The notes under the pieces were generated by a model. That model searched no databases. It had not been told where the DNA came from and saw nothing but the letters and a program-made list of their open reading frames with translations. 64,000 bases of DNA, taken from contig OZ024740.1 in the NCBI GenBank assembly GCA_964016885.1, forward strand, positions 172,112,001 through 172,176,000. Reading direction: 5' to 3'. Position numbers and translations under genes: made by a program. Numbering within the stretch: position 1 is the first letter of the stretch; every line of letters starts with the position of its first letter. Below, piece after piece: positions 6,274 to 63,631 of the stretch. This DNA is from Eledone cirrhosa. Its lineage: Eukaryota.

Positions 6274-6430
6274 ATAACAAAGAAAGTGTGGTAAGAAAGG
6301 TAAGAAACCAGGTAGACCATAACGCACCAGAATAGAGTCAGAACCCCGACGGCTGAGCTCTGGCCGTTTCGACAGCTAGATCTAGCTGTCGAATCGGCCT
6401 GAGCTCAGCCGTCGGGGTCCTGATTCTTTT

Positions 6431-6490
<60 letters not shown>

Positions 6491-6496
<6 letters not shown>

Positions 6497-8150
6497 AATA
6501 TAGACATAGAATATTCGAAAATATTCTGTATGTTTATAATAAACATTTTGAAGACCTAATCGCTATAGAATAGAATACGTCACGTATTACAATTAGATTC
6601 TCGATAAAAGCAAGGGAAGTAATCTACGCGTTTCATTCTCGTTAGAAATCATCAGGACTACATATCCAGTGCTTTTATCGAGAATGACACAGCTAGAGAC
6701 TTATAGAATACTTAGCTGTGTACAGGAACTGGTTTGAAAGAGCGGTTGCCGGTCCGGCAGAAATTAGAAATTGGAATAAATGCTCTGAAATAGCGATATA
6801 TATGTGAATATAGACATAGAATATTCGAAAATATTCTGTATGTTTATAATAAACATTTTGAAGACCTAATCGCTATAGAATAGAATACGTCACGTATTAC
6901 AATTAGATTCTCGATAAAAGCAAGGGAAGTAATCTACGCGTTTCATTCTCGTTAGAAATCATCAGGACTACATATCCAGTGCTTTTATCGAGAATGACAC
7001 AGCTAGAGACTTATAGAATACTTAGCTGTGTACAGGAACTGGTTTGAAAGAGCGGTTGCCGGTCCGGCAGAAATTAGAAATTGGAATAAATGCTCTGAAA
7101 TAGCGATATATATGTGAATATAGACATAGAATATTCGAAAATATTCTGTATGTTTATAATAAACATTTTGAAGACCTAATCGCTATAGAATAGAATACGT
7201 CACGTATTACAATTAGATTCTCGATAAAAGCAAGGGAAGTAATCTACGCGTTTCATTCTCGTTAGAAATCATCAGGACTACATATCCAGTGCTTTTATCG
7301 AGAATGACACAGCTAGAGACTTATAGAATACTTAGCTGTGTACAGGAACTGGTTTGAAAGAGCGGTTGCCGGTCCGGCAGAAATTAGAAATTGGAATAAA
7401 TGCTCTGAAATAGCGATATATATGTGAATATAGACATAGAATATTCGAAAATATTCTGTATGTTTATAATAAACATTTTGAAGACCTAATCGCTATAGAA
7501 TAGAATACGTCACGTATTACAATTAGATTCTCGATAAAAGCAAGGGAAGTAATCTACGCGTTTCATTCTCGTTAGAAATCATCAGGACTACATATCCAGT
7601 GCTTTTATCGAGAATGACACAGCTAGAGACTTATAGAATACTTAGCTGTGTACAGGAACTGGTTTGAAAGAGCGGTTGCCGGTCCGGCAGAAATTAGAAA
7701 TTGGAATAAATGCTCTGAAATAGCGATATATATGTGAATATAGACATAGAATATTCGAAAATATTCTGTATGTTTATAATAAACATTTTGAAGACCTAAT
7801 CGCTATAGAATAGAATACGTCACGTATTACAATTAGATTCTCGATAAAAGCAAGGGAAGTAATCTACGCGTTTCATTCTCGTTAGAAATCATCAGGACTA
7901 CATATCCAGTGCTTTTATCGAGAATGACACAGCTAGAGACTTATAGAATACTTAGCTGTGTACAGGAACTGGTTTGAAAGAGCGGTTGCCGGTCCGGCAG
8001 AAATTAGAAATTGGAATAAATGCTCTGAAATAGCGATATATATGTGAATATAGACATAGAATATTCGAAAATATTCTGTATGTTTATAATAAACATTTTG
8101 AAGACCTAATCGCTATAGAATAGAATACGTCACGTATTACAATTAGATTC
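6491..8150 (-). repeat. 310-bp tandem array (about 5.35 units), retrozyme-like
   Basis: Units start at 6491, 6801, 7111, 7421, 7731 and 8041 and look identical. One HHR per full unit. (TA)n on both sides. Confidence 0.95.
6619..6661 (-). ncRNA. Minimal type I hammerhead (also 6929-6971, 7239-7281, 7549-7591, 7859-7901)
   Basis: GTAGTC-CTGATGA-TTTCT-AACG-AGAAT-GAA-ACGCGT-A-GATTAC; palindromic stem III ACGCGT. Confidence 0.85.
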
Positions 8151-8669
8151 ATATATATATATATATACAAGAAAGTATGTCCATAGAATCATTTGATAAA
8201 ATATATACAGTATTTCCTCTCCCAATCAGCATAATCAACCATACAAAGAACCAATTAAACAAGGCTATAAAATTAAAAGGCACCTATGAAGAAACAATAG
8301 ATAAATAAACGATAGCTATTTTATTCGCGATCAACAGTCACAAAATATTACCCAGTATTTTTAATAGCCCGTGGAAATCGATTAGATATATAGCCAATCC
8401 ATACACAATTAGGTACAAAATCAAAGTTAGAAGAAAAAAAGACATAATTTTGGTATGCTTATATACATTTTTTCTTCTAACTTTGATTTTGTACCTAATT
8501 GTGTACGGATTGGCTATATATCTAATCGATTTCCACGGGCTATTAGAAATACTGGGTAAATATTCTGTGACTGTTGATCGCGAATAAAATAGCTATCGTT
8601 TATTTATCTATTATTTCTTCATAGGTGCCTTTTAATTTTATAGCCTTGTTTAACCCATCAACTTCTTTC

Positions 8670-9210
8670 TGTGGGCTAAACTAGTGTTTCAAATAAATTT
8701 CAGTGGACTAAACTAGTGTTTCAAATAAATTTCAGTGGACTAAACTAGTGTTTCAAATAAATTTCAGTGGGCTAAACTAGTGTTTCAAATAAATTTCAGT
8801 GGGCTAAACTAGTGTTTCAAATAAATTTCAGTGGGCTAAACTAGTGTTTCAAATACATTTCAGTGGACTAAACTAGTGTTTCAAATAAATTTCAGTGGGC
8901 TAAACTAGTGTTTCAAATAAATTTCAGTGGACTAAACTAGTGTTTCAAATAAATTTCAGTGGGCTAAACTAGTGTTTCAAATAAATTTCAGTGGACTAAA
9001 CTAGTGTTTCAAATAAATTTCAGTGGGCTAAACTAGTGTTTCAAATAAATTTCAGTGGACTAAACTAGTGTTTCAAATAAATTTCAGTGGGCTAAACTAT
9101 TGTTTCAAAGTCATTCAGTGGACTAAACTATTGTTTCAAAGTCTTTCAGTGGACTAAACTATTGTTTCAAATAAATTTCAGTGAACTAAAGTAGTGTTTC
9201 AAATAAATTT
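8670..9210. repeat. 32-bp minisatellite (about 17 copies), with an inverted partial copy at about 9420-9587
   Basis: Unit GTGG(G/A)CTAAACTAGTGTTTCAAATAAATTTCA. Confidence 0.95.
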
Positions 9211-9277
9211 TGTTTTCTGATTTTCGGTTTTCCGGTTTTCATCTTCTAGTTTTTCTTTTTAGTTTGTTTTTCTAAGC

Positions 9278-9359
<82 letters not shown>

Positions 9360-10095
9360 GTGTGTGTGTGTAAGCTTAGAAAAACAAACGAAAAAGAAAA
9401 ACTAGAAGCTCCAGATGAAAATCGAAATTTTATTTGAAACACTAGTTTAGTCCACTGAAATTTATTTGAAACACTAGTTTAGTCCACTGAAAGACTTTGA
9501 AACAATAGTTTAGTCCACTGAAAGACTTTGAAACACTAGTTTAGCCCACTGAAATTTATTTGAAACACTAGTTTAGTCCACTGAAATATATATATATAAC
9601 ATATATATTATGCTCATACATATATAAACTCGTAGTGTATATATTATGTGTATATAAGAGAACTAAGTTCCCTTCTAAATGTTTTTATTGGATTTTGAAC
9701 ATTACATATGTTTCATAGATGAATGGCTCTAGGATTTTTCGATATGACAGACCTGACTACAGGAACGATCTGTTCATTAGACGTGTGTACTCAATCAAAA
9801 CATTTTCCTCGCGAGATCATAGAGCCAATTTCATCTGTGAAACATATATAACGTTCAATTTCCAGAAAAATAAACATAGTATTCATCCGTCCCCTTATTT
9901 ATAGTCCATATTGAAATAGAAATGTTACATAACAACCTTAAAACTTAAGATGATGTCTGATGAAGTCGTGTTGGTGGTTGGATGATGACTGCATTGCACA
10001 ATCATGAAATCATGAATCCCACAGAAATATGTATTACGGCAAATTATGAATAAAATGAGCTATGAATATCAGACCTCCGCAACTATCTATTATAG

Positions 10096-15384: not shown

Positions 15385-15437
<53 letters not shown>

Positions 15438-15441
<4 letters not shown>

Positions 15442-17079
15442 GAAGAGAGAAGAAACATTTAGATATAATTAGTAATAAAATGTATCATACCTAAACTGCT
15501 CCTAAATTCCTCGACTACGTAGTTTCGTGGCATAAACAAAAACAATATATCATAAAGATATAGAGTCGCTGCGAGGTCTGCCGACTTATCAAGAGGATAC
15601 CTCATTTTACTAGTCTCAAGAACGCGTCTACACGACGTGAGAAAGAATCCCAAAAGGCGGAGGGGGAGATAGTCACGCGATATAACGGTCGAGAAACAGA
15701 GCTAAGCCTCTTATAACCACGAAGAAAATACCACGGAGGCGGAGGGGGTATTCATATCGAGGCCGCAGAAGAGGTGGTGAAGAAGGCTAGAAGTATGAGT
15801 AATGGAAGCTTTCCAGTTGTCCCCACACTTCAAAGATTGCTCGACCAGAGGGAGTTATTAACAATATGTTTAGAAACACACAGATACATGCGGACACACA
15901 CATATATACATGAATGCATCCGCACCCAACTGTGAGTTAAGGGTGCCAACTTCACCGATGTTGCTCAATGAATGACCGGGACAGACCAATTCAGTTGAAC
16001 CAGACTGAACCAGTATCAGAGTTAAAAATACATTATGAAGAGAGAAGAAACATTTAGATATAATTAGTAATAAAATGTATCATACCTAAACTGCTCCTAA
16101 ATTCCTCGACTACGTAGTTTCGTGGCATAAACAAAAACAATATATCATAAAGATATAGAGTCCCTGCGAGGTCTGCCGACTTATCAAGAGGATACCTCAT
16201 TTTACTAGTCTCAAGAACGCGTCTACACGACGTGAGAAAGAATCCCAAAAGGCGGAGGGGGAGATAGTCACGCGATATAACGGTCGAGAAACAGAGCTAA
16301 GCCTCTTATAACCACGAAGAAAATACCACGGAGGCGGAGGGGGTATTCATATCGAGGCCGCAGAAGAGGTGGTGAAGAAGGCTAGAAGTATGAGTAATGG
16401 AAGCTTTCCAGTTGTCCCCACACTTCAAAGATTGCTCGACCAGAGGGAGTTATTAACAATATGTTTAGAAACACACAGATACATGCGGACACACACATAT
16501 ATACATGAATGCATCCGCACCCAACTGTGAGTTAAGGGTGCCAACTTCACCGATGTTGCTCAATGAATGACCGGGACAGACCAATTCAGTTGAACCAGAC
16601 TGAACCAGTATCAGAGTTAAAAATACATTATGAAGAGAGAAGAAACATTTAGATATAATTAGTAATAAAATGTATCATACCTAAACTGCTCCTAAATTCC
16701 TCGACTACGTAGTTTCGTGGCATAAACAAAAACAATATATCATAAAGATATAGAGTCCCTGCGAGGTCTGCCGACTTATCAAGAGGATACCTCATTTTAC
16801 TAGTCTCAAGAACGCGTCTACACGACGTGAGAAAGAATCCCAAAAGGCGGAGGGGGAGATAGTCACGCGATATAACGGTCGAGAAACAGAGCTAAGCCTC
16901 TTATAACCACGAAGAAAATACCACGGAGGCGGAGGGGGTATTCATATCGAGGCCGCAGAAGAGGTGGTGAAGAAGGCTAGAAGTATGAGTAATGGAAGCT
17001 TTCCAGTTGTCCCCACACTTCAAAGATTGCTCGACCAGAGGGAGTTATTAACAATATGTTTAGAAACACACAGATACAT
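15438..17079 (-). repeat. 595-bp tandem array (about 2.75 units), retrozyme-like
   Basis: Units start at 15438, 16033 and 16628 and are near-identical. One HHR per unit. Left end abuts (TA)n. Confidence 0.95.
15508..15597 (-). ncRNA. Type I hammerhead, U3:A8 variant (also 16103-16192, 16698-16787)
   Basis: TCCTC-TTGATAA-GT(C)GGCA..TGCCAC-GAA-ACTACGTAGT-C-GAGGA. Confidence 0.8.
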
Positions 17080-18981: not shown

Positions 18982-19245
18982 ATACATACATTCATATATA
19001 ATCTATACTAATAATAAACATTTACTCTACGGGTTTATGTATACTTATGTATATACAACTCATATCGAGACATCTTTGTATTTTGGTCTTATTATTACGG
19101 GGTCGATAAAATAAAGTACCAGTAATGTACAGGGTAATTGCTGGCCTTGTGCCAAAAAGTAGAAACAATTATTATAATAATATATATATATCGTTTCTGA
19201 ATTTGTTTAGCAAGATTCTTTATCTGAAAACGTGTGATGAAACCG

Positions 19246-20116
19246 ATATTGTTATACTTTGGGAGGGTCATGTTGCCAATAAGAAACACACGCACCATTT
19301 GTTTCACTCCAATTTATTATAAATTAAATTATAAATTTAAAAATTTATAAATTTCCGGTTGGTTGGTTGGTTGGTTGGTTCCACAACCGGACGGTTGCTC
19401 ATATATTGTCAAAGTTCTTTCGTCACACATTCTGTGACCTCTTCAGTGACTGGGGATTCTTTTCTTTGTTTTGTGCTTCTCCTTTGTTCTGTCCTACGCC
19501 ATCTTGTTTTTTGTGTGTGTTTTGTGCTTAGTTTGCGCATGTGTTTCATCATCCGGGTGTCTGTGTGTGTTTTTATTTGTTTATTTATTTGTTTATTTAC
19601 ATGTTACTAGTTGGTTGTTTGTCCTATGTGTGTTTTCATTTTGTCCTTAATTGTAAGTTGTGATGTTGCTATTCCATTCATGTTTTCTATTTAATTTTGG
19701 TTGGAGTTCATTTATGTTTATTGCCTCTGTGATTTGTCTAAACATTGCGTCTTTTCAGTGTGTAAATTTTATTTTTATTTCTATGTTCCCTAATTTGCCC
19801 TTAAAAACACACACACACAGACACCCGGATGTAACACATGCGCAAACTAAGCACACAACACACACAAAAACAAGATGGAGAACAAAGGAGAGGCACAAAA
19901 CAAAGAAAAGAATCCCCAGTCACTGAAGAGGTCACAGAATGTGTGACGAAAGAACTTTGACAATATATGAACAACCGTCCGGTTGTGGAACCAACCAACC
20001 AACCGGAAATTTATAAATGTTTAAATTTATAATATAATTTATAATAAATTGGAGTGAAAGCAACTGGTGCGTGTGTTTCTTATTGGCAACATGACCCTCC
20101 CAAAGTATAACAATAT
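19246..20116. mobile_element. Fold-back element with about 320-bp inverted arms, one HHR per arm
   Basis: 19246-19575 is the reverse complement of about 19803-20116. Related pieces at 18190-18292 and 14500-14730. Confidence 0.8.
19919..19961 (+). ncRNA. Minimal hammerhead (mirror copy at 19408-19450, minus)
   Basis: GTCA-CTGAAGA-G-GTCACA-GAATG-TGTGAC-GAA-AG-AA-CT-T-TGAC. Confidence 0.7.
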
Positions 20117-21140: not shown

Positions 21141-21141
<1 letters not shown>

Positions 21142-21585
21142 AACGGAAAAAATGAAACGATATTTCATTTCCCACTCTTAGTACGGCTGTTACTTAAATA
21201 TAAGTATGTACACGTACATACATATATGTATACCGACGTACAGTAGTATGTATATATATATATATACATATACATACATGCACACATATATATATGCACG
21301 TATGGATTCACTGAACATTTATTATAATGCTCGGTGTGTTTGTAAACAAACATCCCGTATTAAGCCGTAGTGTCTAGCAACCACCGTTGCTCGTTTGTTC
21401 AACACTGACAAAGGAACGCTGTACTAGTTTCAAGCTTGTTAGCTATCGTCAGCAACGTATACCTTCCTGCCAGATTGTTGAACGTATATACTTACCTTAT
21501 GCATATTAACGGCTGAGTAGCCCAATTTGCATATCGAGTGGGTTAATCGGCCGGGTGCACCGAAAACGATAAACGGAAAATGAAA
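21141..21585 (-). mobile_element. About 425-bp HHR-bearing monomer (family R422)
   Basis: Starts and ends with AAACGGAAAA(AA)TGAAA. Same family as 41661-42686. Confidence 0.8.
21417..21457 (-). ncRNA. Minimal type I hammerhead
   Basis: CGTTG-CTGACGA-TAGCT-AACA-AGCTT-GAA-ACTAGT-A-CAGCG. Confidence 0.85.
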
Positions 21586-22176
21586 TATCTCCGAGAGAGA
21601 GAGTGGTTGGAGTGCGCTAAGCAACTGAAGTATACGATTAAGTTATATCTGTATATACACAGAGTGGGTAACCGAGAGTGCACCAATGTGTATATAAATA
21701 TACATATTAATATGTAGACATGCCAGAAAACATGCCAGAAAATAATAATTTCCCTGTAAATTTAAAAAATGAAAAAATGATACATATATATATATAAAGG
21801 AATATATATATATATATATATGTATGTAAAAGGTGAACAGAAATAACAACACAATCGGTACAGTATATCGAAGGGATATATTAGGTTAAAGCTTGATATA
21901 GAAGGAAGAGGGTCTTAACGTTTCGGACGCTAGTCCTTCACCAGAAGAAAGAATGAGGAATAAGATAGATTGAGGGGACGGGCGGGTTGGAATTAGAAAA
22001 AATGTCTTTAGATAAAAATAACAGGTTCATTCATGTTGACATCTCTTGCAAAACTGTTAGTGCTGGCGTTTTGTGTATGATGTATTTTTTAGGAAAGTGG
22101 ATGATGGAACGCTTCTACCTGAAATGGAAAAAAAACCGTTTTGTAAAAAGAGCTATACTTGTGCACGTGCGTAAGC

Positions 22177-26096: not shown

Positions 26097-26127
<31 letters not shown>

Positions 26128-26134
<7 letters not shown>

Positions 26135-26385
26135 TAAGAGGAATTCCAACTTTGTCTGATTTACTCGTTTTATTTACAATCCTTTAAAATCTATAATCGT
26201 ATTATAATGAAATAGTATGATAGAATATTAAATGTTAAGTGTTAATTGACAAATGTTAAGTGTCAATTAACACTTAACATTTAATATTCTATCATACTAT
26301 TTCATTATAATACCATTATAGATTTTAAAGGATTGTAAATAAAACGAGTAAATCAGACAAAGTTGGAATTCCTCTTATTAATATA
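26128..26385. repeat. Fold-back (about 120-bp arms, 11-nt loop) between microsatellites
   Basis: 26128-26250 is the reverse complement of 26262-26385. A deleted copy lies at 51657-51830. Confidence 0.9.
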
Positions 26386-30296: not shown

Positions 30297-30300
<4 letters not shown>

Positions 30301-31428
30301 AATATATAAGGGAGAGAATTGGGAGTGTGTAACACTCCACTTATCAAATAGGCAGTATATGGTTAGCTCAATGTCAGAGGACAGAGCCGTAATACAATTA
30401 ACAACAAAGAGCGCTTAGAACATAGGTATATCTTTAATTGCTAACAGTGTTTCGTCCACACTAGAAGTGGGACTCTTCAGAGCATAAAGAGTAAATACAT
30501 AGTATGCAAGCATTGACAAAGCCAAAACAGAAGAATATATGTGGGGATACCATAAGTTGGGGGGAGTTTAAAGAGTAAAGTAAAAGGAGTAAAATAAGAA
30601 AAGAGTAAAATAAAAATAAAAATAAAAATAAATATAAAAATAAAAATAAAAATAAAAATAAAAATAAAAATAAAAAATAAGAAATGTTATCACTCACGGT
30701 TGGGCAGGGTTCCGTAAACATACAGCTACATACAAGTATACGCATAAGCATGAGCACCCGCATGCACCTACACACAAGCACCCGTATGCAACACATACAG
30801 TATACACTAATACAAATAACATATCATAGACGGATGGGCACAAGTTAAGAGATAGAGATAGATAAAAAATAGATAAGAGGTAGATAAAAAATAAAAAATA
30901 AAAAATAAAAAATAAAAAATAAAAAATAAAAAATAAAAAATAAAAAATAAAAAATAAAAAATAAAAAATAAAAAATAAAAAATAAAAAATAAAAAATAAA
31001 AAATAAAAAATAAAAAATAAAAAATAAAAAATAGATAAAAAATAGATAAGAAATAGATAAAAAATAGATTAAAAATAGATAAAAGATAAAAAATAAAATA
31101 AAATAAAATAAAGTAAAGTAAAATATACACCAGAAGATAAATAAAACAATACACCAAAAAAATGGAGTAAAATATACACCATAAAGGAAGGTGTGTGTAA
31201 AGATAAGACTGGCAAATGCATAAGCTATCAAGTTATGTTCAACAAGTGATATACGTACAATATATAAAATATACAAAAATATATACAAAAATATATATAA
31301 AAAATATATATATAAAAGAGACGTTTACATAAGGATATATATATATATATATATACACATATCAGTCCAAGTAATGCATATTTATAAAAATGTAACTGGG
31401 GGTAAAAAGATGTAATAAGGGTAATCAA
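30297..31428 (-). repeat. PLE 3' pseudo-LTR
   Basis: Direct repeat of 35618-36744, with A-rich heptamer/decamer tracts differing in length. Confidence 0.9.
30432..30489 (-). ncRNA. PLE pLTR minimal hammerhead
   Basis: CTTTA-TGCT-CTGAAGA-GTCC..GGAC-GAA-AC-ACT-GT-T-AGCA-AT-TAAAG. Confidence 0.8.
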
Positions 31429-33082
31429 GATGGTAATTATTAGGGCATGTAATAATAATATTATTATAGAAATCCTAAGGTGACACTAGTGTTGACTCAT
31501 GGTGATATATGGAATATATCAGGAGCACACGAACGCCTTAGGTGTTGCAGTTAGCCGCAGTTCAACAATAGAGTGTTAGAATGAGATTTTTTATTTTTTA
31601 TTTTTTATGAACAAATGCTATGTCCGCACTAGATTGAGTGGACCATTACAATGCAATGGAAACATCCCATGTTGGACAGTCCCAAAAGTTCACACTCCAA
31701 AGTTCAATCCACAGGTGTGCATTCATAGAGTTGAGCACTCAGGCAAGAATTAATTGGTTAACAAGGTGTATCCGTATCACAAGCAGGAGCATATGCTGGG
31801 AAGGTTGCAGGCAAATTCATATACAGCAGCACGAACATCAAGAGGCAAATAACTGAGGCGCATATTAGTGAGCAGAAGCAGGCAAGTGCAGGTGGTAAAA
31901 CACAGTCAGGTGAAGCAGGTTATTATGCATACCATTTAATATAAGAAAACTCAACAACGTGCATAACAAATAGCTTCCAAAGCCGATAACCACAAAATCA
32001 CAACATTGAGCAACAATCCGGCATCGCAAGAATGTATGGAACATTAGGGTTAGTCCAGAGACAGTATATGTATACTTATACATACACACATACACTCAAA
32101 CATGTATATACAGAGACAGTATACATACACATATATACAGAGACAGTATATATATATATATATATACACATACACGTATATACACATAAATATATACATA
32201 CACACACACACACACACCGCACCGGACACCCAAATCTACGCGGATATATTACACAAAATATCTTACCCAGCTAACAAAAGTCAAAAACCCATAACAGTTG
32301 CCCTCACTGGTCGCAGATAATGTAGTTTCACAGTAAATTAGCCAGAGTAATCACGATTAATATTCAAAATAAAACCCTATGAGGAGATGCGTATTCACAC
32401 GTGTAGTCACCAGATTCAAGTATAAACAAACCGTTAATAAATACGGAAGGCTATCGGGGCCAAGACGTTATTCTTGGGAGAATAACACAGAGCGTCAATC
32501 TATGGAAGGCCAACTATGCTAAAAATACAACACCGGGCAAAAACACCCCAAAGTCAGCATGTAGACTGTGAACCGCAGAATAGGAGGGTAACACATACAT
32601 GTACTCCATATCTACTGCCCACGGCGAGATGGCACAGGTCAGCTCACAGTGACTGGCTAAATCTCCGTCCCATATGGGCACAGGCCCATTGGTTCACTCC
32701 GAGTCAACAAGGTAATTTAAATAAACTAAAATAAGATAAAATGCGAGGGGCAGGTTAAATATAATCAATTGTACACACTCTACATAGATGTATTACATCA
32801 CAACTCATGAGCATACAAAGGTACAAATCCATACAATACACGTTGGGATAGACCCACCAATGCACAAACACACACACGGTGGCTGGGCAAGTATGGAAGG
32901 GTCACATCCACTGTACGGAACAAGGGTGCTTATTAACATATACACCAACTCACGTATACACCTCGATATCCAAATTCCATATTCACATGCAGGCATACAT
33001 ATACACACAGACACATATACAAACAAGACAAACAATAGGAGACAATTACACTAGATTACCCAACTGGAGAATTCTGAAAGTG

Positions 33083-33840
33083 CTAGCTAATAGGCTTAAA
33101 GTAAAAGAAAGAGCTTAATATCCGGTGGGGGCAAGAGGAAAACATTTCTGACTTTCTATTTAGTAGGGAGCACTTGGCAAATATAATAGAGTGGGATTCC
33201 GTAAGGCATAGGTTACATACTCTATTATGAGGAGTATATGGATGGGATTTAGCAACTTGCCGCCAAGTGAGGGTGTACTGTGTTCGTGCATTTTTTAAAT
33301 TGTGGACGTGCGCTGCCAAGGAGGTAGAATTCTTCAGTTTATTATGTCTAAATGTACACTGGTGGGAGTTAAATCTGGTTTTAAAAGGGGTGCAAGTTGA
33401 TCCAATATAAGTTTTAGTGGACGCAGTAGTTACCACATCACACGCATAAACTGTTTCTAGTAAGGCAGAAACCATTCAGGGGGCAGCCCGAAGCCCTTCT
33501 ACAGTTACAATTTCTGGTGATGCTATTATCTAAATGATCACCAGCTTGCTGACCACGGGTGTTCAGGCTACCTCTGTCGACTCCAATGTTTTCCCCTAGG
33601 CGTAAGGTGTCGAGGCCTTCCTTAATTTTCTTATTATTGGTATTGGCTAGATGAGAGGCCAGATTTTGGGTTGTAGAATACGAGAGTTTAACCACATTCT
33701 TATTGAGGATAGAATGGTACCTATTACCAGGAGGGAAGTTCCCTTCTAACACAGAGAAGAAGGCCCTAGGAATATTCGTAGCCACTTCGGAGTTAAATGG
33801 GGGGTTAAAATATGTATTCAATCTTCTTCTATTCTTTTTA

Positions 33841-33895
<55 letters not shown>

Positions 33896-35592
33896 TATTA
33901 TTATTATTATTATTAATTCCATTGCTAAGGTTACTATGTTCACCTAATCTATGCGGGGAGCTAAGAGGCCTACCATTACTGTTACTTAGTCCATTGGTAC
34001 TCTGTTGGTGCATTTTACCGGCATTCAAAACCCTCATGTTCGAAACACCTCTATTACCAATGGACATATTATGTGTTATAACAACACTGGTAGAGCTACT
34101 ATTTGGACTATTATTTCCCTGGGCATAATGTAATTTGTCCCTAAAGCCGGATCTAGCTAAGGCATCATTATAATAATCAGCCTGCGAGTTAAACGCCTCT
34201 TCACTATGTGAGAGTGAACTTATTCTGTTAGAGACCCCCTTCAATATACCACTGATGACCGACTTAGGGTGGTTGGAGTTAGTATTCACATAAGTCGGCA
34301 ATTCATTAGGCTTATGGTACGGTGTGTACGTATGGTTACCTAAGTCCAATGTAACATCAAGGAAGTTGACAGTCCTATCATTTATATCCATAGTAATGGA
34401 CAGATTGAAGGTTTTAAAGAATTTATACAGCTTTTTCCTAATGCGCACTATATTATACTTGCTAGCATCTATGGAGAGTAGGGCATCATCACGGTACAAC
34501 CCACCCCTAAGGGAATGGGAAGTTACTATGTAGTTCAGTAAGGAGGTAGAGCCCAACTAAGTCGGTGACCTGAGCAGAATCACTTGACCCCATAGTAATG
34601 TCAAAATTATCCGGTGTGTTTTTTCTCGTCCATAAATTATCCTCAAACATAATGATGGTTTTACGTGCAGCGAGAACGATATCTATCTGTGGCCGTTAAA
34701 TTACCCCTCTCTGCATGGCTAGGATAAGGGCCTTATTGAAGATGATAGGAGATATAGATGTATAATAAGCATCAATATCAAATTGGATAAACCTAAGCGA
34801 ATCACGCCCACAATCCGTAGAAAACCACCTAATGACTTCACTAGTATTACCCCAAAGCTCAAGGAATGTTTTTTCTTTAACCAGGGGAATTACGCTATCT
34901 AAGATTCTCTTACTTATAATCCCCAAATCAGACTTGGAGGGGCAGATAAGCCTAACTGAGGGGCTACTAATAAAGTTTTCCTTATGGTCCTTAAGGGTGA
35001 ATCTAGGCTGTTTGGGGTAATATGGTTGAGTGTGTTTATCTAGACCTAATTTTACTACTATGTTATACCCCTCTAGATTAATATTATCTAAATTACTCTG
35101 CGTTGTTTTTTTGTAGTTCCTATGTAGTTCATTATAAATGAAGCCACGATAAGTTTTATAATCCATACTATACAGGTTTTTAGTTTTGTCGGAAGGGACC
35201 AGAATAGATTTATTATCCATAAAGTCCTTAACGATAGAACCGAGTTTACTCTGAAACTTATTGGTACATCTAGATTTTTTATACCTAATATTCCCGACAA
35301 GGGATAACAGCTCACTTTCGAAATTATCCAATAGGCTATTGTGTGGGGGGCTCCTATATGTCTTAAAGCCATAATTATTAAAACTACACTTATCATCAGG
35401 GTTATCATACTTCTTATCAAAATGGAACGCACGCCACCGAACACGTTTTACAAAGGAATTTATGCTAGTTATAAGCAATTTCTCATATGAAACTTTAGAA
35501 GGGGTGGGAATATTCTTCAAAGAAATGGGTAAGTATGTCTTTGTTAGCATACTGCCTGATGATATACAAGAATATAAATTCACGTATATCAA
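33083..35592 (-). pseudogene. PLE reverse transcriptase / GIY-YIG endonuclease, disrupted
   Basis: Motifs KNIPTPS, VPSDKTKNLY, FIQFDIDAYY, FDITMGSSDSAQVTDLVGLY, GLYRDD, NFLDVTLDL, CNCx5CPLNGxC, VYxC..YIGST..FKTRFNSH, CNLCLTE. Stop at 34696; frameshifts at about 34590, 34515 and 33460. Confidence 0.93.
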
Positions 35593-35617
35593 AGTTGAAG
35601 CTCAACCAGTGGGAGCC

Positions 35618-36744
35618 GTATAATATATAAGGGAGAGAATTGGGAGTGTGTAACACTCCACTTATCAAATAGGCAGTATATGGTTAGCTCAATGTCAGAG
35701 GACAGAGCCGTAATACAATTAACAACAAAGAGCGCTTAGAACATAAGTATATCTTTAATTGCTAACAGTGTTTCGTCCACACTAGAAGTGGCACTCTTCA
35801 GAGCATAAAGAGTAAATACATAATATACAAGCATTGACAAAGCCAAAACAGAAGAATATATGTGGGGATACCATAAGTTGGGAGGAGTTTAAAGAGTAAA
35901 GTAAAAGGAGTAAAATAAGAAAAGAGTAAAATAAAAATTAAAATTAAAAAAAAAAAAAAAAAAAAAAAAGAAATGTTATCACTCACAGTTGGGCAGGGTT
36001 CCGTTAACATACAGCTACATGCAAGTATACGCATAAGCATGAGCACCCGCATGCACCTACACACAAGCACCCGTATGCAACACATACAGTATACACTAAT
36101 ACAAATAACATATCATAGACGGATGGGCACAAGTTAAGAGATAAAGATAGATAAAAAATAGATAAGAGGTAGATAAAAAATAGATAAAAAATAGATAAAA
36201 AATAGATAAAAAATAGATAAAAAATAGAAAAAAAATAGATAAAAATAAAAACATAAAAAAAATAAAAAAAAAATAATAATAATAATAAAAAAAATAAATA
36301 AATAAATAAATAAATAAAAATAAAAAAAAATAGATAAAAAAATAGATAAAAATAGATAAAAAATAGATAAGAAATAGATAAAAAATAGATAACAAATAGA
36401 TAAAAGATAAAAAATAAAATAAAATAAAATAAAATAAAGTAAAGTAAAATATACACCAGAAGATAAATAAAACTACACCAAAAAAAATGGAGTAAAATAT
36501 ACACCATAAAGGAAGGTGTGGGTAAAGATAAGACCGGCAAATGCATAAGCTATCAAGCTATGTTCAACAAGTGATATACGTACAATATATAAAACATACA
36601 AAAATATATACAAAAATATATATAAAAAATATATATAAAAGAGACGTATACATAAGGATATATATATATATACACATATCAGTCCAAGTAATGCATATTT
36701 ATAAAAATGTAACTGGGGGTAAAAAGATGTAATAAGGGTAATCA
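35618..36744 (-). repeat. PLE 5' pseudo-LTR
   Basis: Direct repeat of 30297-31428, ending just upstream of the ORF. Confidence 0.9.
35760..35805 (-). ncRNA. PLE pLTR hammerhead (stem II variant)
   Basis: Same as the 30439-30484 core except GTGC replaces GTCC in stem II. Confidence 0.7.
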
Positions 36745-37062
36745 ATATGTAATAATCAATATGTAATAATCAATATGTAATAATCAATATGTAATAAGGG
36801 TAATCAATATGTAAATATCTTTAAGTCGTTTGGAAGCCTCGACAATGCAAATGGGTAAATCTCCGGGTAACAAGGTCCGGTGGTGGAGAGAGAGATGTAA
36901 GTGGGTGTATGTTGAGATGCGTGGTGGGTATAAAATGTGTGAGATGTGTAGAATGAAGGGAAGAGTATAAAGGATAAAATTAAAATAACAACACAAGAGA
37001 GAGTTACCTTGGGAGAGATTTAATAGTCCCTATATATTTCGGATTCACATCCATCAATTGGG

Positions 37063-41619: not shown

Positions 41620-41664
<45 letters not shown>

Positions 41665-41926
41665 GGAAAAAATGAAACGATATTTCATTTCCCACTCTTA
41701 GTACGGCTGTTACTTAAATACAAGTATGTACACGTACATACATATATGTATACAGACGTACAGTAGTATGTATATATATATACATACATGCACACATATA
41801 TATATGTACGTATGGATTCACCGAACATTTATTATAATGCTCGGTGTGTTGGTAAACAAGCATCCCGTATTAAGCCGTAGTGTCTAGCAACCATCGTTGC
41901 TCGTTTGTTCAACACTGACAAAGGAA

Positions 41927-41967
41927 CGCTGTACTAGTTTCAAGCTTATTAGCTATCGTCAGCAACG
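41927..41967 (-). ncRNA. Minimal hammerhead (R422)
   Basis: CGTTG-CTGACGA-TAGCT-AATA-AGCTT-GAA-ACTAGT-A-CAGCG. Confidence 0.85.
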
Positions 41968-42437
41968 TATACCTTTCTGCCAGATTGTTGAACGTATATA
42001 CTTACCTTATGCATATTATGCTGACAATAGCTAATAAGCTTGAAACTAGTACAGCGTTCCTTTGTCAGTGTTGAACAAACGAGCAACGATGGTTGCTAGA
42101 CACTACGGCTTAATACGGGATGTTTGTTTACAAACACACCGAGCATTATAATAAATGTTCGGTGAATCCATACGTGCATATATATATATGTGTGAATGTA
42201 TGTATATATATATACATACTACTGTACGTCTGTATACATATATGTATGTACGTGTACATACTTATATTTAAGCAACAGCCGTACTAAGAGTGGGAAACGA
42301 AATTTCGTTTCATTTTTTCCGTTTATCGTTTTCGGTGCACCCGGCCGATTAACCCACTCGATATGCAAATTGGGCTACTCATCCGTTAATATGCATAAGG
42401 TAAGTATATACGTTCAACAATCTGGCAGAAAGGTATA

Positions 42438-42478
42438 CGTTGCTGACGATAGCTAATAAGCTTGAAACTAGTACAGCG
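42438..42478 (+). ncRNA. Minimal hammerhead (R422)
   Basis: Same motif on the plus strand. The copy at 42019-42056 has G8>A and a truncated stem I. Confidence 0.85.
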
Positions 42479-42702
42479 TTCCTTTGTCAGTGTTGAACAA
42501 ACGAGCAACGATGGTTGCTAGACACTACGGCTTAATACGGGATGTTTGTTTACAAACACACCGAGCATTATAATAAATGTTCGGTGAATCCATACGTGCA
42601 TATATATATATGTGTGCATGTATGTATATATATATACATACTACTGTACGTCTGTATACATATATGTATGTACGTGTACATACTTATATATATATATATA
42701 TA

Positions 42703-43420
42703 TTAATGTTCAGAACCATCCCCAGCATTCTCGTGTAGCACCCATCCTCCATCTGAGTGAGTTTCTTGGTCAGTGTCCAAGTCTCAGACCCGTACAGCAG
42801 CACAGACTCCACTACACTAATGAAGAGGCGGATTTTCAGGTCTTTACGAAGGTCCCACTTCCACACCGATCTCAAGCTGTGGCACGCCGCCCAGGCTTTG
42901 CTCTTCCTCTCAACCACATCATATTCCGTATTCCCAATCTTTGCTCCCAAATACAGGAAGCCCTCAACCAATTCTAGCGGATTCCGCTCTACATTAGTGA
43001 TCCCCTCTGGCTTCTCAACATTCTCTACCAGATATTTTGTTTTAGTCTCATTCATTCTCAGCCCCACACTCATCGTCACAGTCTCAACCTCCCGCATCAA
43101 ATCCTCTGCCTCCTCCACTGTCGTTACATGAAAAACTCAGTGCTGTATGGGAGCCTCCCAAAAGTCAGCTCAAAAGTGACACAGAGGAGACTGAGGTTAG
43201 CTGGACATGCTCACCGACATCCGGAGTTGATATTGCACTCAGTGCTCCTGTAGGAGCCCCTACATGGACACACTGGAAGAGGAAGACCAAGGTTAACGTA
43301 TGTTGATGCCCTAAGGACAGACACTGGTCTGTTGGAGACGCAAGACATGGCAGTGATAATGAGGGACAGAGACCGCTGGAGAGAACTCGTCCATGGATCT
43401 CGGAAATTTTATCCGCCCTA
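42703..43420. mobile_element. 5'-inverted RTE-like LINE fragment
   Basis: Minus 42703-43128: GLRMNETKTKYL..FLYLGA..SVLLYGSETWTL..RML. Plus about 43130-43420: SVLYGSLPKVS..RRLRLAGH..GRGRPRLTYVD..DRDRWR. Confidence 0.85.
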
Positions 43421-63048: not shown

Positions 63049-63240
63049 TATATAATATTGATTCTCTGAGAGATTCATCTCATTGAGATGTTTAAGTATT
63101 AGAGACTAATTAACCTTTAATTGATATATATATATATATATATATATAATGTAGGAGGTGAGTTTTATTGTAGTACAATAAAGCAATGCAGATATCGGAT
63201 AAGAAGCACTCTACAGTTTGTGGGACTGGAGTATGCATAA

Positions 63241-63631
<391 letters not shown>

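Follow-up and report, generated by a model that had tools for sequence, protein, structure and literature searches.

Insertions of Penelope-like elements (PLEs) show a described layout in which a partial tandem lies next to an adjacent inverted, 5'-truncated copy, with a tail at one end and (TA)n as the target; the tail is optional and 30-40 bp long (PMC8557442). The typical Penelope structure consists of two direct pLTRs and an adjacent inverted one, for which self-priming has been proposed (Arkhipova et al. 2013, PMC3846280), and a curation guide treats inverted pLTRs and short 3' extensions as peculiarities of PLEs (PMC8969392). Target-site duplications (TSDs) in microsatellites are often not discernible (PMC8557442), and inverted PLE copies with 8-10-bp TSDs have been described (PMC3846280). 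The purified PAc protein (Poseidon of Anolis carolinensis) cleaves and extends both strands of AT-rich DNA; its reverse transcription begins internally, at two neighbouring sites by which the tail is defined, and a dimer is predicted (Frangieh et al. 2024, PMC11167929). Metazoan repeats and PLEs are known to carry type I hammerheads with palindromic loop 3, and hammerheads of this form are described as requiring a second copy, with which they fold in dimeric form (PMC4209133). For more-than-unit cDNA, circular templates were put forward in 2014 (PMC4209133) and in 2020 (PMC7229834), and animal retrozymes, with family lengths of 51-972 bp, have been argued to be non-autonomous derivatives of PLEs (Li, Clavereau and Pollet 2026, 10.64898/2026.07.22.740005). 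The formation of tandem and inverted PLE insertions and the role of the hammerhead have been called open (PMC8557442), and a literature search joining Penelope, twin priming and inversion returned no paper on PLE mechanism by title.

In a stretch of 64,000 nucleotides from Eledone cirrhosa, referred to in its entirety as the window, we analyzed a family of 422-nt repeats termed R422. We place a probability of roughly 75% on the reading that R422 is a non-coding hammerhead repeat, that is, an animal non-LTR retrozyme, moved by a PLE protein, and that 41661-42686 is one PLE insertion of standard layout. Taken separately, the identity of 41661-42686 as a PLE-type retrozyme insertion is highly probable. 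BLAST and pairwise alignment within the window resolved this locus into a 358-nt minus arm joined 5'-to-5' to 1.58 plus copies of the unit. The features of the locus and of a second copy are as follows, with registers of the unit numbered from 42019 (register 1).

41624-41661, no strand: left target tract, (TA)19, 19 repeats in the sequence
41661-42018, minus strand: left arm, inverted and 5'-truncated, 358 nt or 0.85 unit (registers 369-422 and 1-308), with its 3' end at site A
41661-41720, minus strand: 'tail' of about 60 nt between sites B and A, at the left end only, ending in a hairpin and then TTA
41921-41977, minus strand: intact type I hammerhead of the left arm, core from 41962, limits mapped from the plus copy
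42018-42019, no strand: 5'-to-5' joint with 0-1 nt of microhomology, where most of the 5' strand of unit-1 stem I is removed
42019-42440, plus strand: unit 1, 422 nt, 37% GC, without a long open reading frame (ORF), its hammerhead (from 42021) broken
42428-42484, plus strand: intact type I hammerhead, with one pair in helix III and a palindromic CUAG cap
42441-42686, plus strand: partial unit 2 (registers 1-246), continuing unit 1 without any shift of register, with its 3' end at site B
42686-42703, no strand: right (TA)n tract, about 9 repeats in the sequence
42704-43136, minus strand: right-flank reading frame, which stops at the TA tract and has no continuation in the left flank
21141-21585, minus strand: second R422 copy, 445 nt or about 1.05 units, adjoining a TA tract and not inverted

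A preliminary description of this locus had reported a minus arm joined 5'-to-5' to 1.6 plus monomers, both 3' ends facing TA tracts and a joint inside hammerhead stem I, and all three points were confirmed: the arms measure 358 nt and 1.58 units, the tracts lie at 41624-41661 and about 42686-42703, and the right arm opens with the final 2 nt of stem I's 5' strand. The right arm (42019-42686) spans 668 nt with a period of 422 and crosses the main 3'-end site A without a scar. The 3' ends of the left arm (register 307/308) and of the right arm (246-249) are about 60 nt apart, in agreement with the earlier statement that the arms end at different registers, but the left-arm end is shared, to the same base, with the 21141-21585 copy, so that two of the three R422 ends in the window lie at one register. 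This second copy had been given as 1.0 unit; it is present, at a slightly larger size. All three ends face TA tracts. Just past the 5' end of the second copy, at 21586-21690, short R422-like pieces can be seen by eye, and BLAST gave no significant match there.

The R422 unit is non-coding, with a longest ATG frame of 86 aa. It has no long ORF, and hence none with the reverse transcriptase (RT) and GIY-YIG endonuclease of an autonomous PLE. Intact type I hammerheads, comprising the core, stems I and II and palindromic loop 3, were found at 42443 (plus), 41962 (minus) and 21452 (minus), and for the one at 42428-42484 the cut site is predicted after 42473. The hammerhead descriptor was matched by none of 2000 dinucleotide shuffles of the unit. 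An Rfam search of the whole window gave no match at the gathering score, and its 110 weak matches were hairpin and TA-repeat matches without any hammerhead family; a metagenome scan for the hammerhead core gave no match. The cut-to-cut monomer was more stable in folding than all 100 of its shuffles (z = -4.7), with a contribution from TA-rich hairpins. At the joint, the unit-1 hammerhead is broken twice, by loss of most of the 5' strand of stem I and by a G8-to-A change, leaving intact ribozymes at one per strand only. With one intact ribozyme per strand, we infer from the sequence that the 41661-42686 copy would be unlikely to free a monomer by itself.

To place these ends in the wider family, public reads or contigs of four of the 24 listed runs (X1, X4, X6 and X24) were aligned to one unit (42130-42551), with 42130-42223 skipped as repeat in the read alignment and the small-share runs X14-X20 left out. 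Run X1, with 10,322 R422 contigs, may be the source of the window and is therefore not independent. Run X24 is a reduced-representation library with the same species label from a different study, in which 72,634 of 12,467,656 reads align to R422, and X4 and X6 are runs of two other organisms. Alignment depth was not taken as copy number.

Site A was evident in X1, where 44 contigs end at 42326 and continue into (AT)n, the largest among the six loose ends listed for that run; this position is equivalent to the 3' end of the left arm and of the 21141-21585 copy. Site B, the end of the right arm, was represented by loose ends at 42267 in X4 (two contigs) and X6 (one contig) and at 42266 in X4 (one contig), with a matching drop in X4 depth from 324 to 76 at 42265, and was absent among the six loose ends listed for X1. 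A joint supported by 16 reads in X24 skips the 61 nt between the two sites. Each site follows a hairpin and ends in TTA(T). The tail that they delimit is about 60 nt long, compared to the 30-40 bp published for PLEs. The two 3'-end registers are recurrent end sites rather than arbitrary points on a circle, with site B resting on 3-4 contigs. The differing registers had originally been read as a sign of a circular or multimeric template; with recurrent sites they lose that meaning for a circle. The scar-free passage of the right arm through site A does indicate a more-than-unit template, which may have been either a circle or a transcript of a genomic tandem.

A hairpin within unit 1, at 42294-42311, merits separate mention. 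Two changes there (registers 280 and 286; private or near-private, with the 42298 allele at a frequency below 1% in X1) turn an imperfect hairpin into a perfect 18-nt palindrome, the outcome expected of a single quasi-palindrome template switch.

Long inverted arms flanked by TA could also be taken for a MITE-like DNA element with long terminal inverted repeats that inserted at TA, and fixed TIR-like ends with TSDs had been named in the preliminary description as the finding that would speak against its reading. What we found was different, in that the arms end about 60 nt apart, the 21141-21585 copy has no inverted arm, the joints vary between copies, and the unit is a tandem one that bears a hammerhead. 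We consider the probability of such an element negligible.

No TSD was seen at 41661-42686: in a comparison of the 40 nt lying beyond each tract, the longest shared word was 5 nt and was not adjacent. The two flanks fail to rejoin and the pre-insertion site could not be rebuilt; target DNA was probably lost at insertion. The right-flank frame (42704-43136) presumably resembles the end of an RTE-type LINE reverse transcriptase; Pfam gave a single match for it, DUF6451, below the cut-off, and no family for two left-flank frames.

Flanks that do not rejoin would also be expected if two independent insertions had landed back to back in one TA tract, the DNA between them having been deleted or never present. 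R422 is very abundant, as the number of X1 contigs attests, (TA)n takes either orientation, and the two arms differ at 11 alignment columns over 362 nt. The alleles of the arms are at odds with this account. The allele at 42429 is present in both arms, makes up about 8% of X1 depth and is absent from the 21141-21585 copy, and the arms agree at all three of the tabulated sites, this one included, that both cover and at which that copy differs. The shared alleles indicate that the arms derive from one source, which counts against two separate insertions; in addition, the joint contains no TA remnant and direct 5'-to-5' joints recur in the family. We therefore regard separate insertions as very improbable. 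Private changes in each arm, at roughly 1%, hide any signal of the template itself, and the 11 differing columns argue against a fold-back read artefact.

The recurrence of inverted joints was assessed from the 15 joints listed of 24. Ten of these change strand, nine in X24 and one in X1; the others, three of the 'skip' type and two of the 'goes back' type, were left out of the head-to-head count. Molecules in X24 end at AATT sites (42301-42304 and 42368-42371), and in eight of the nine strand-change joints of this run the length of the short side matches, to within 1 nt, the spacing between the joint and an AATT site. This arithmetic puts the joint at the low (5') end of each piece, indicating a head-to-head arrangement as in the window. 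The breakpoints of these eight joints are all different, with 0-3 shared letters. The X24 joint 42261-42371 was dropped from the count, as it ends at an AATT site and is likely a ligation chimera, and the X1 joint 42256-42509 probably also fits a head-to-head arrangement better.

Chimerism is a concern for this library, as many X24 loose ends lie at AATT sites with unlike continuations and look like ligation products. For the eight head-to-head joints we consider a chimera origin unlikely. R422 makes up 0.58% of X24, so that 316 family-partner reads arising as chimeras would imply about 54,000 with random partners at these same positions, and the places of these joints are absent among the largest X24 loose ends listed.

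The joint of the window itself is absent among the 15 of 24 read joints listed, and several other inverted repeats are present in the window, both of which would suit a later DNA-level event (fold-back repair or a template switch in replication) or a chimera of the assembly that inverted part of a tandem array. However, the end of the inverted arm coincides exactly with the main 3' end, next to a TA tract, its sequence is not contiguous in the right arm, and each arm carries private changes, and we give this explanation very little credence.

Each of the eight head-to-head joints of X24 has one end located 3-23 nt beyond site A or B. The partner end falls in the hammerhead in six of the eight, with P = 0.03, 0.08 or 0.20 depending on the assumed visible range, and several ends adjoin common subfamily variants at which alignments break, so the position of the window's joint in stem I, which had been singled out earlier, gains no special status. 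Five joint ends cluster at 42277-42280 (P = 7e-5 under uniform detection), a place bordering on a diverged stretch and on the limit of detection, and this cluster was given no weight as evidence. The patterns near sites A and B and in the hammerhead may thus stem from library cuts and alignment breaks. The subfamily that dominates X24 is itself diverged: it carries 8 inserted nt at 42409, numerous changes in stem I and loop II of the hammerhead and, beyond 42501, a different sequence that is also found in organism D (X6); it should be useful for covariation tests of the ribozyme.

As to the route by which the 41661-42686 insertion arose, we lean toward two-sided priming. A GIY-YIG endonuclease would nick both strands in or near the (TA)n tract, as seen in vitro for another PLE. 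Each nick would then prime cDNA synthesis on sense RNA at one of the internal start sites, A or B, whose recurrence is documented above and whose difference would leave the tail. One cDNA would have extended over 1.58 units of a more-than-unit template, and the second over 0.85 unit, as the lengths of the arms show. The two unfinished cDNA ends may then have been linked, probably through host end joining and using hardly any microhomology, while target DNA was lost or rearranged. This route accounts best for the locus because it needs no extra step beyond site-specific priming at each nick, independent cDNA stops and end joining. The proposal that both nicked strands primed cDNA had been made in the preliminary description and stands as the best fit, although it is not new, having an in vitro precedent in PAc (PMC11167929). 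The accompanying idea that the self-complementary nature of (TA)n enables the inversion is not supported, since inverted PLE copies with 8-10-bp TSDs are on record (PMC3846280).

The principal competitor is fold-back, in which one cDNA of 730 nt primed at site A jumped onto itself and was copied back into the inverted arm, and the right-arm tail was lost in resolution or by later deletion into the TA tract. Palindromes at inverted joints have been interpreted as self-priming by Arkhipova et al. (PMC3846280), the tail has been ascribed to endonuclease-mediated resolution (Craig et al., PMC8557442), the rare 42429 allele is common to both arms, and the TTAT at site B provides microhomology to the TA tract. 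In its simple form fold-back fails, as a 668-nt arm could not be copied from a 358-nt arm, the left arm extends 60 nt beyond the right, and the joint has no homology for priming. It is viable only if the right arm first reached site A, and a second event is then needed for loss of the tail. The joint, moreover, has only 0-1 nt of microhomology, a 368-nt offset and no hairpin centre, and end B recurs in other organisms. On balance we consider fold-back unlikely, though it is the most serious of the alternatives to two-sided priming.

A further-reaching interpretation would have both arms copied from one ribozyme-made RNA circle or multimer on a dimeric PLE protein, at the two hairpin-TTA start sites. 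The 1.05-unit copy at 21141-21585, the proximity of one end of all eight joints to site A or B, and the six of eight partner ends in the hammerhead hint at such a template; we regard it as speculative and rather improbable as a whole. If true, 5' ends of copies should accumulate at the hammerhead and at a distance of one unit-length from the start sites, and the thousands of R422 joints would be a record of the way in which PLEs produce tandem and inverted insertions and of the hammerhead's purpose.

The window also contains a PLE, with the following coordinates.

30297-36776, minus strand: broken PLE with Hydra-clade motifs, with two direct pLTRs at 30297-31461 and 35618-36776

The pLTRs are about 1.2 kb long and 90% alike, and each carries a hammerhead (at 30480 and 35801). 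The pieces of the reading frame include RWR, DKT, YRDD, CxCX5C, YIG without a CCHH motif, CxxC and CxH, and judged by these motifs the element looks like the Hydra clade as described, for which insertion in (TA)n is stated. The last frame piece was placed among GIY-YIG clusters in an atlas, a lead for that piece only, and Pfam gave no family for three pieces. The frame has an asparagine-rich stretch, as reported for Adineta Penelope (PMC3846280), and about 1.6 kb of non-coding DNA separates it from the 3' pLTR. Comparison of R422 with the pLTR of this one candidate PLE gave only TA-rich matches and one 30-nt match at E=2.3. This element demonstrates that a PLE is present in the genome, and is a partner of R422 only as a candidate.

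Several other repeats in the window share some of these features. At 19180-20116 lies an unrelated hammerhead element of the same head-to-head layout, with arms at 19246-19578 and 19803-20116 that are 91% alike, hammerheads at 19446 (minus) and 19923 (plus), ends rich in TA and, on the left, about 66 extra nt. A 310-bp tandem (R310) occupies 6486-8150 on the minus strand between TA tracts, in 5.4 copies that are 100% identical, with five intact type I hammerheads and a palindromic CGCG loop 3. We view it as a very young retrozyme array, and as a better candidate than the R422 locus for an active source and for rolling copying. When R422 was compared with R310 and with both flanks of its own insertion, nothing beyond TA-rich or chance matches was found. 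The 595-bp tandem at 15433-17079 (about 2.8 copies, >99.5% identical) starts at a TA tract; a search of it for a canonical hammerhead core found none, and it may be a repeat of the same type that lacks a ribozyme or carries a variant one. Further inverted repeats, near-perfect and 100-400 nt long, are located at 8255-8653, 26127-26385, 63240-63531 and 6330-6431; three of these abut a TA tract on one side, and they are possibly palindromic PLE stubs; two of the four were scanned, and no canonical hammerhead was found in either. Finally, a 32-bp minisatellite of 17 copies is present at 8666-9591, with the same unit inverted at 9424-9591 across an (AC)n tract.

R422 is a new family, of an element kind and with an inverted-tandem footprint that are already known. 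The layout of its insertion, initially regarded as unusual, is the standard PLE footprint (PMC8557442; PMC3846280). The locus itself thus adds no new kind of element, and its value lies in the data. The full PLE footprint in a short and very abundant retrozyme lends support to the proposed mobilization of retrozymes by PLEs, on grounds of insertion anatomy rather than homology. Genome-wide, R422 offers a large sample of joints with which two-sided priming could be separated from fold-back, and a circle from a multimer.

R422 can be set against four described systems. In LINE-1 twin priming, two primers, one per target strand, produce a 5' inversion, and the piece that is inverted comes from within one RNA and does not overlap the rest. 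In contrast, the arms of R422 are overlapping copies that both run to a 3' end site. With endonuclease-bearing PLE insertions (PMC8557442; PMC3846280), R422 shares the partial tandem, the inverted truncated copy joined at its 5' end, the hammerhead, a one-ended, tail-like extension, the (TA)n target and the lack of a discernible TSD; it differs in having no ORF, a whole unit of only 422 nt, a tail of about 60 nt and a joint with no palindromic centre. With animal non-LTR retrozymes, as described by Cervera and de la Pena (2020, PMC7229834) and in the 2026 preprint, it shares a low-GC, non-coding tandem unit, a type I hammerhead with a weak palindromic helix III, copies of both monomer size and multimeric form, and, in both cases, PLEs in the same genome. 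The word 'inverted' has no occurrence in the main text of PMC7229834. In the preprint, a retrozyme is called active if it has two consecutive complete hammerheads, which the 41661-42686 copy does not have, a finding that concerns this copy and not the family. With PAc (PMC11167929), R422 shares two adjacent internal 3' ends near stem-loops, a tail and an AT-rich target. Cutting and extension of both strands, demonstrated for PAc, are for R422 proposed only, and PAc differs further in that it is autonomous, its start sites lie in an AC-rich stem-loop inside the ORF, and joining of the cDNAs is not demonstrated in the text examined.
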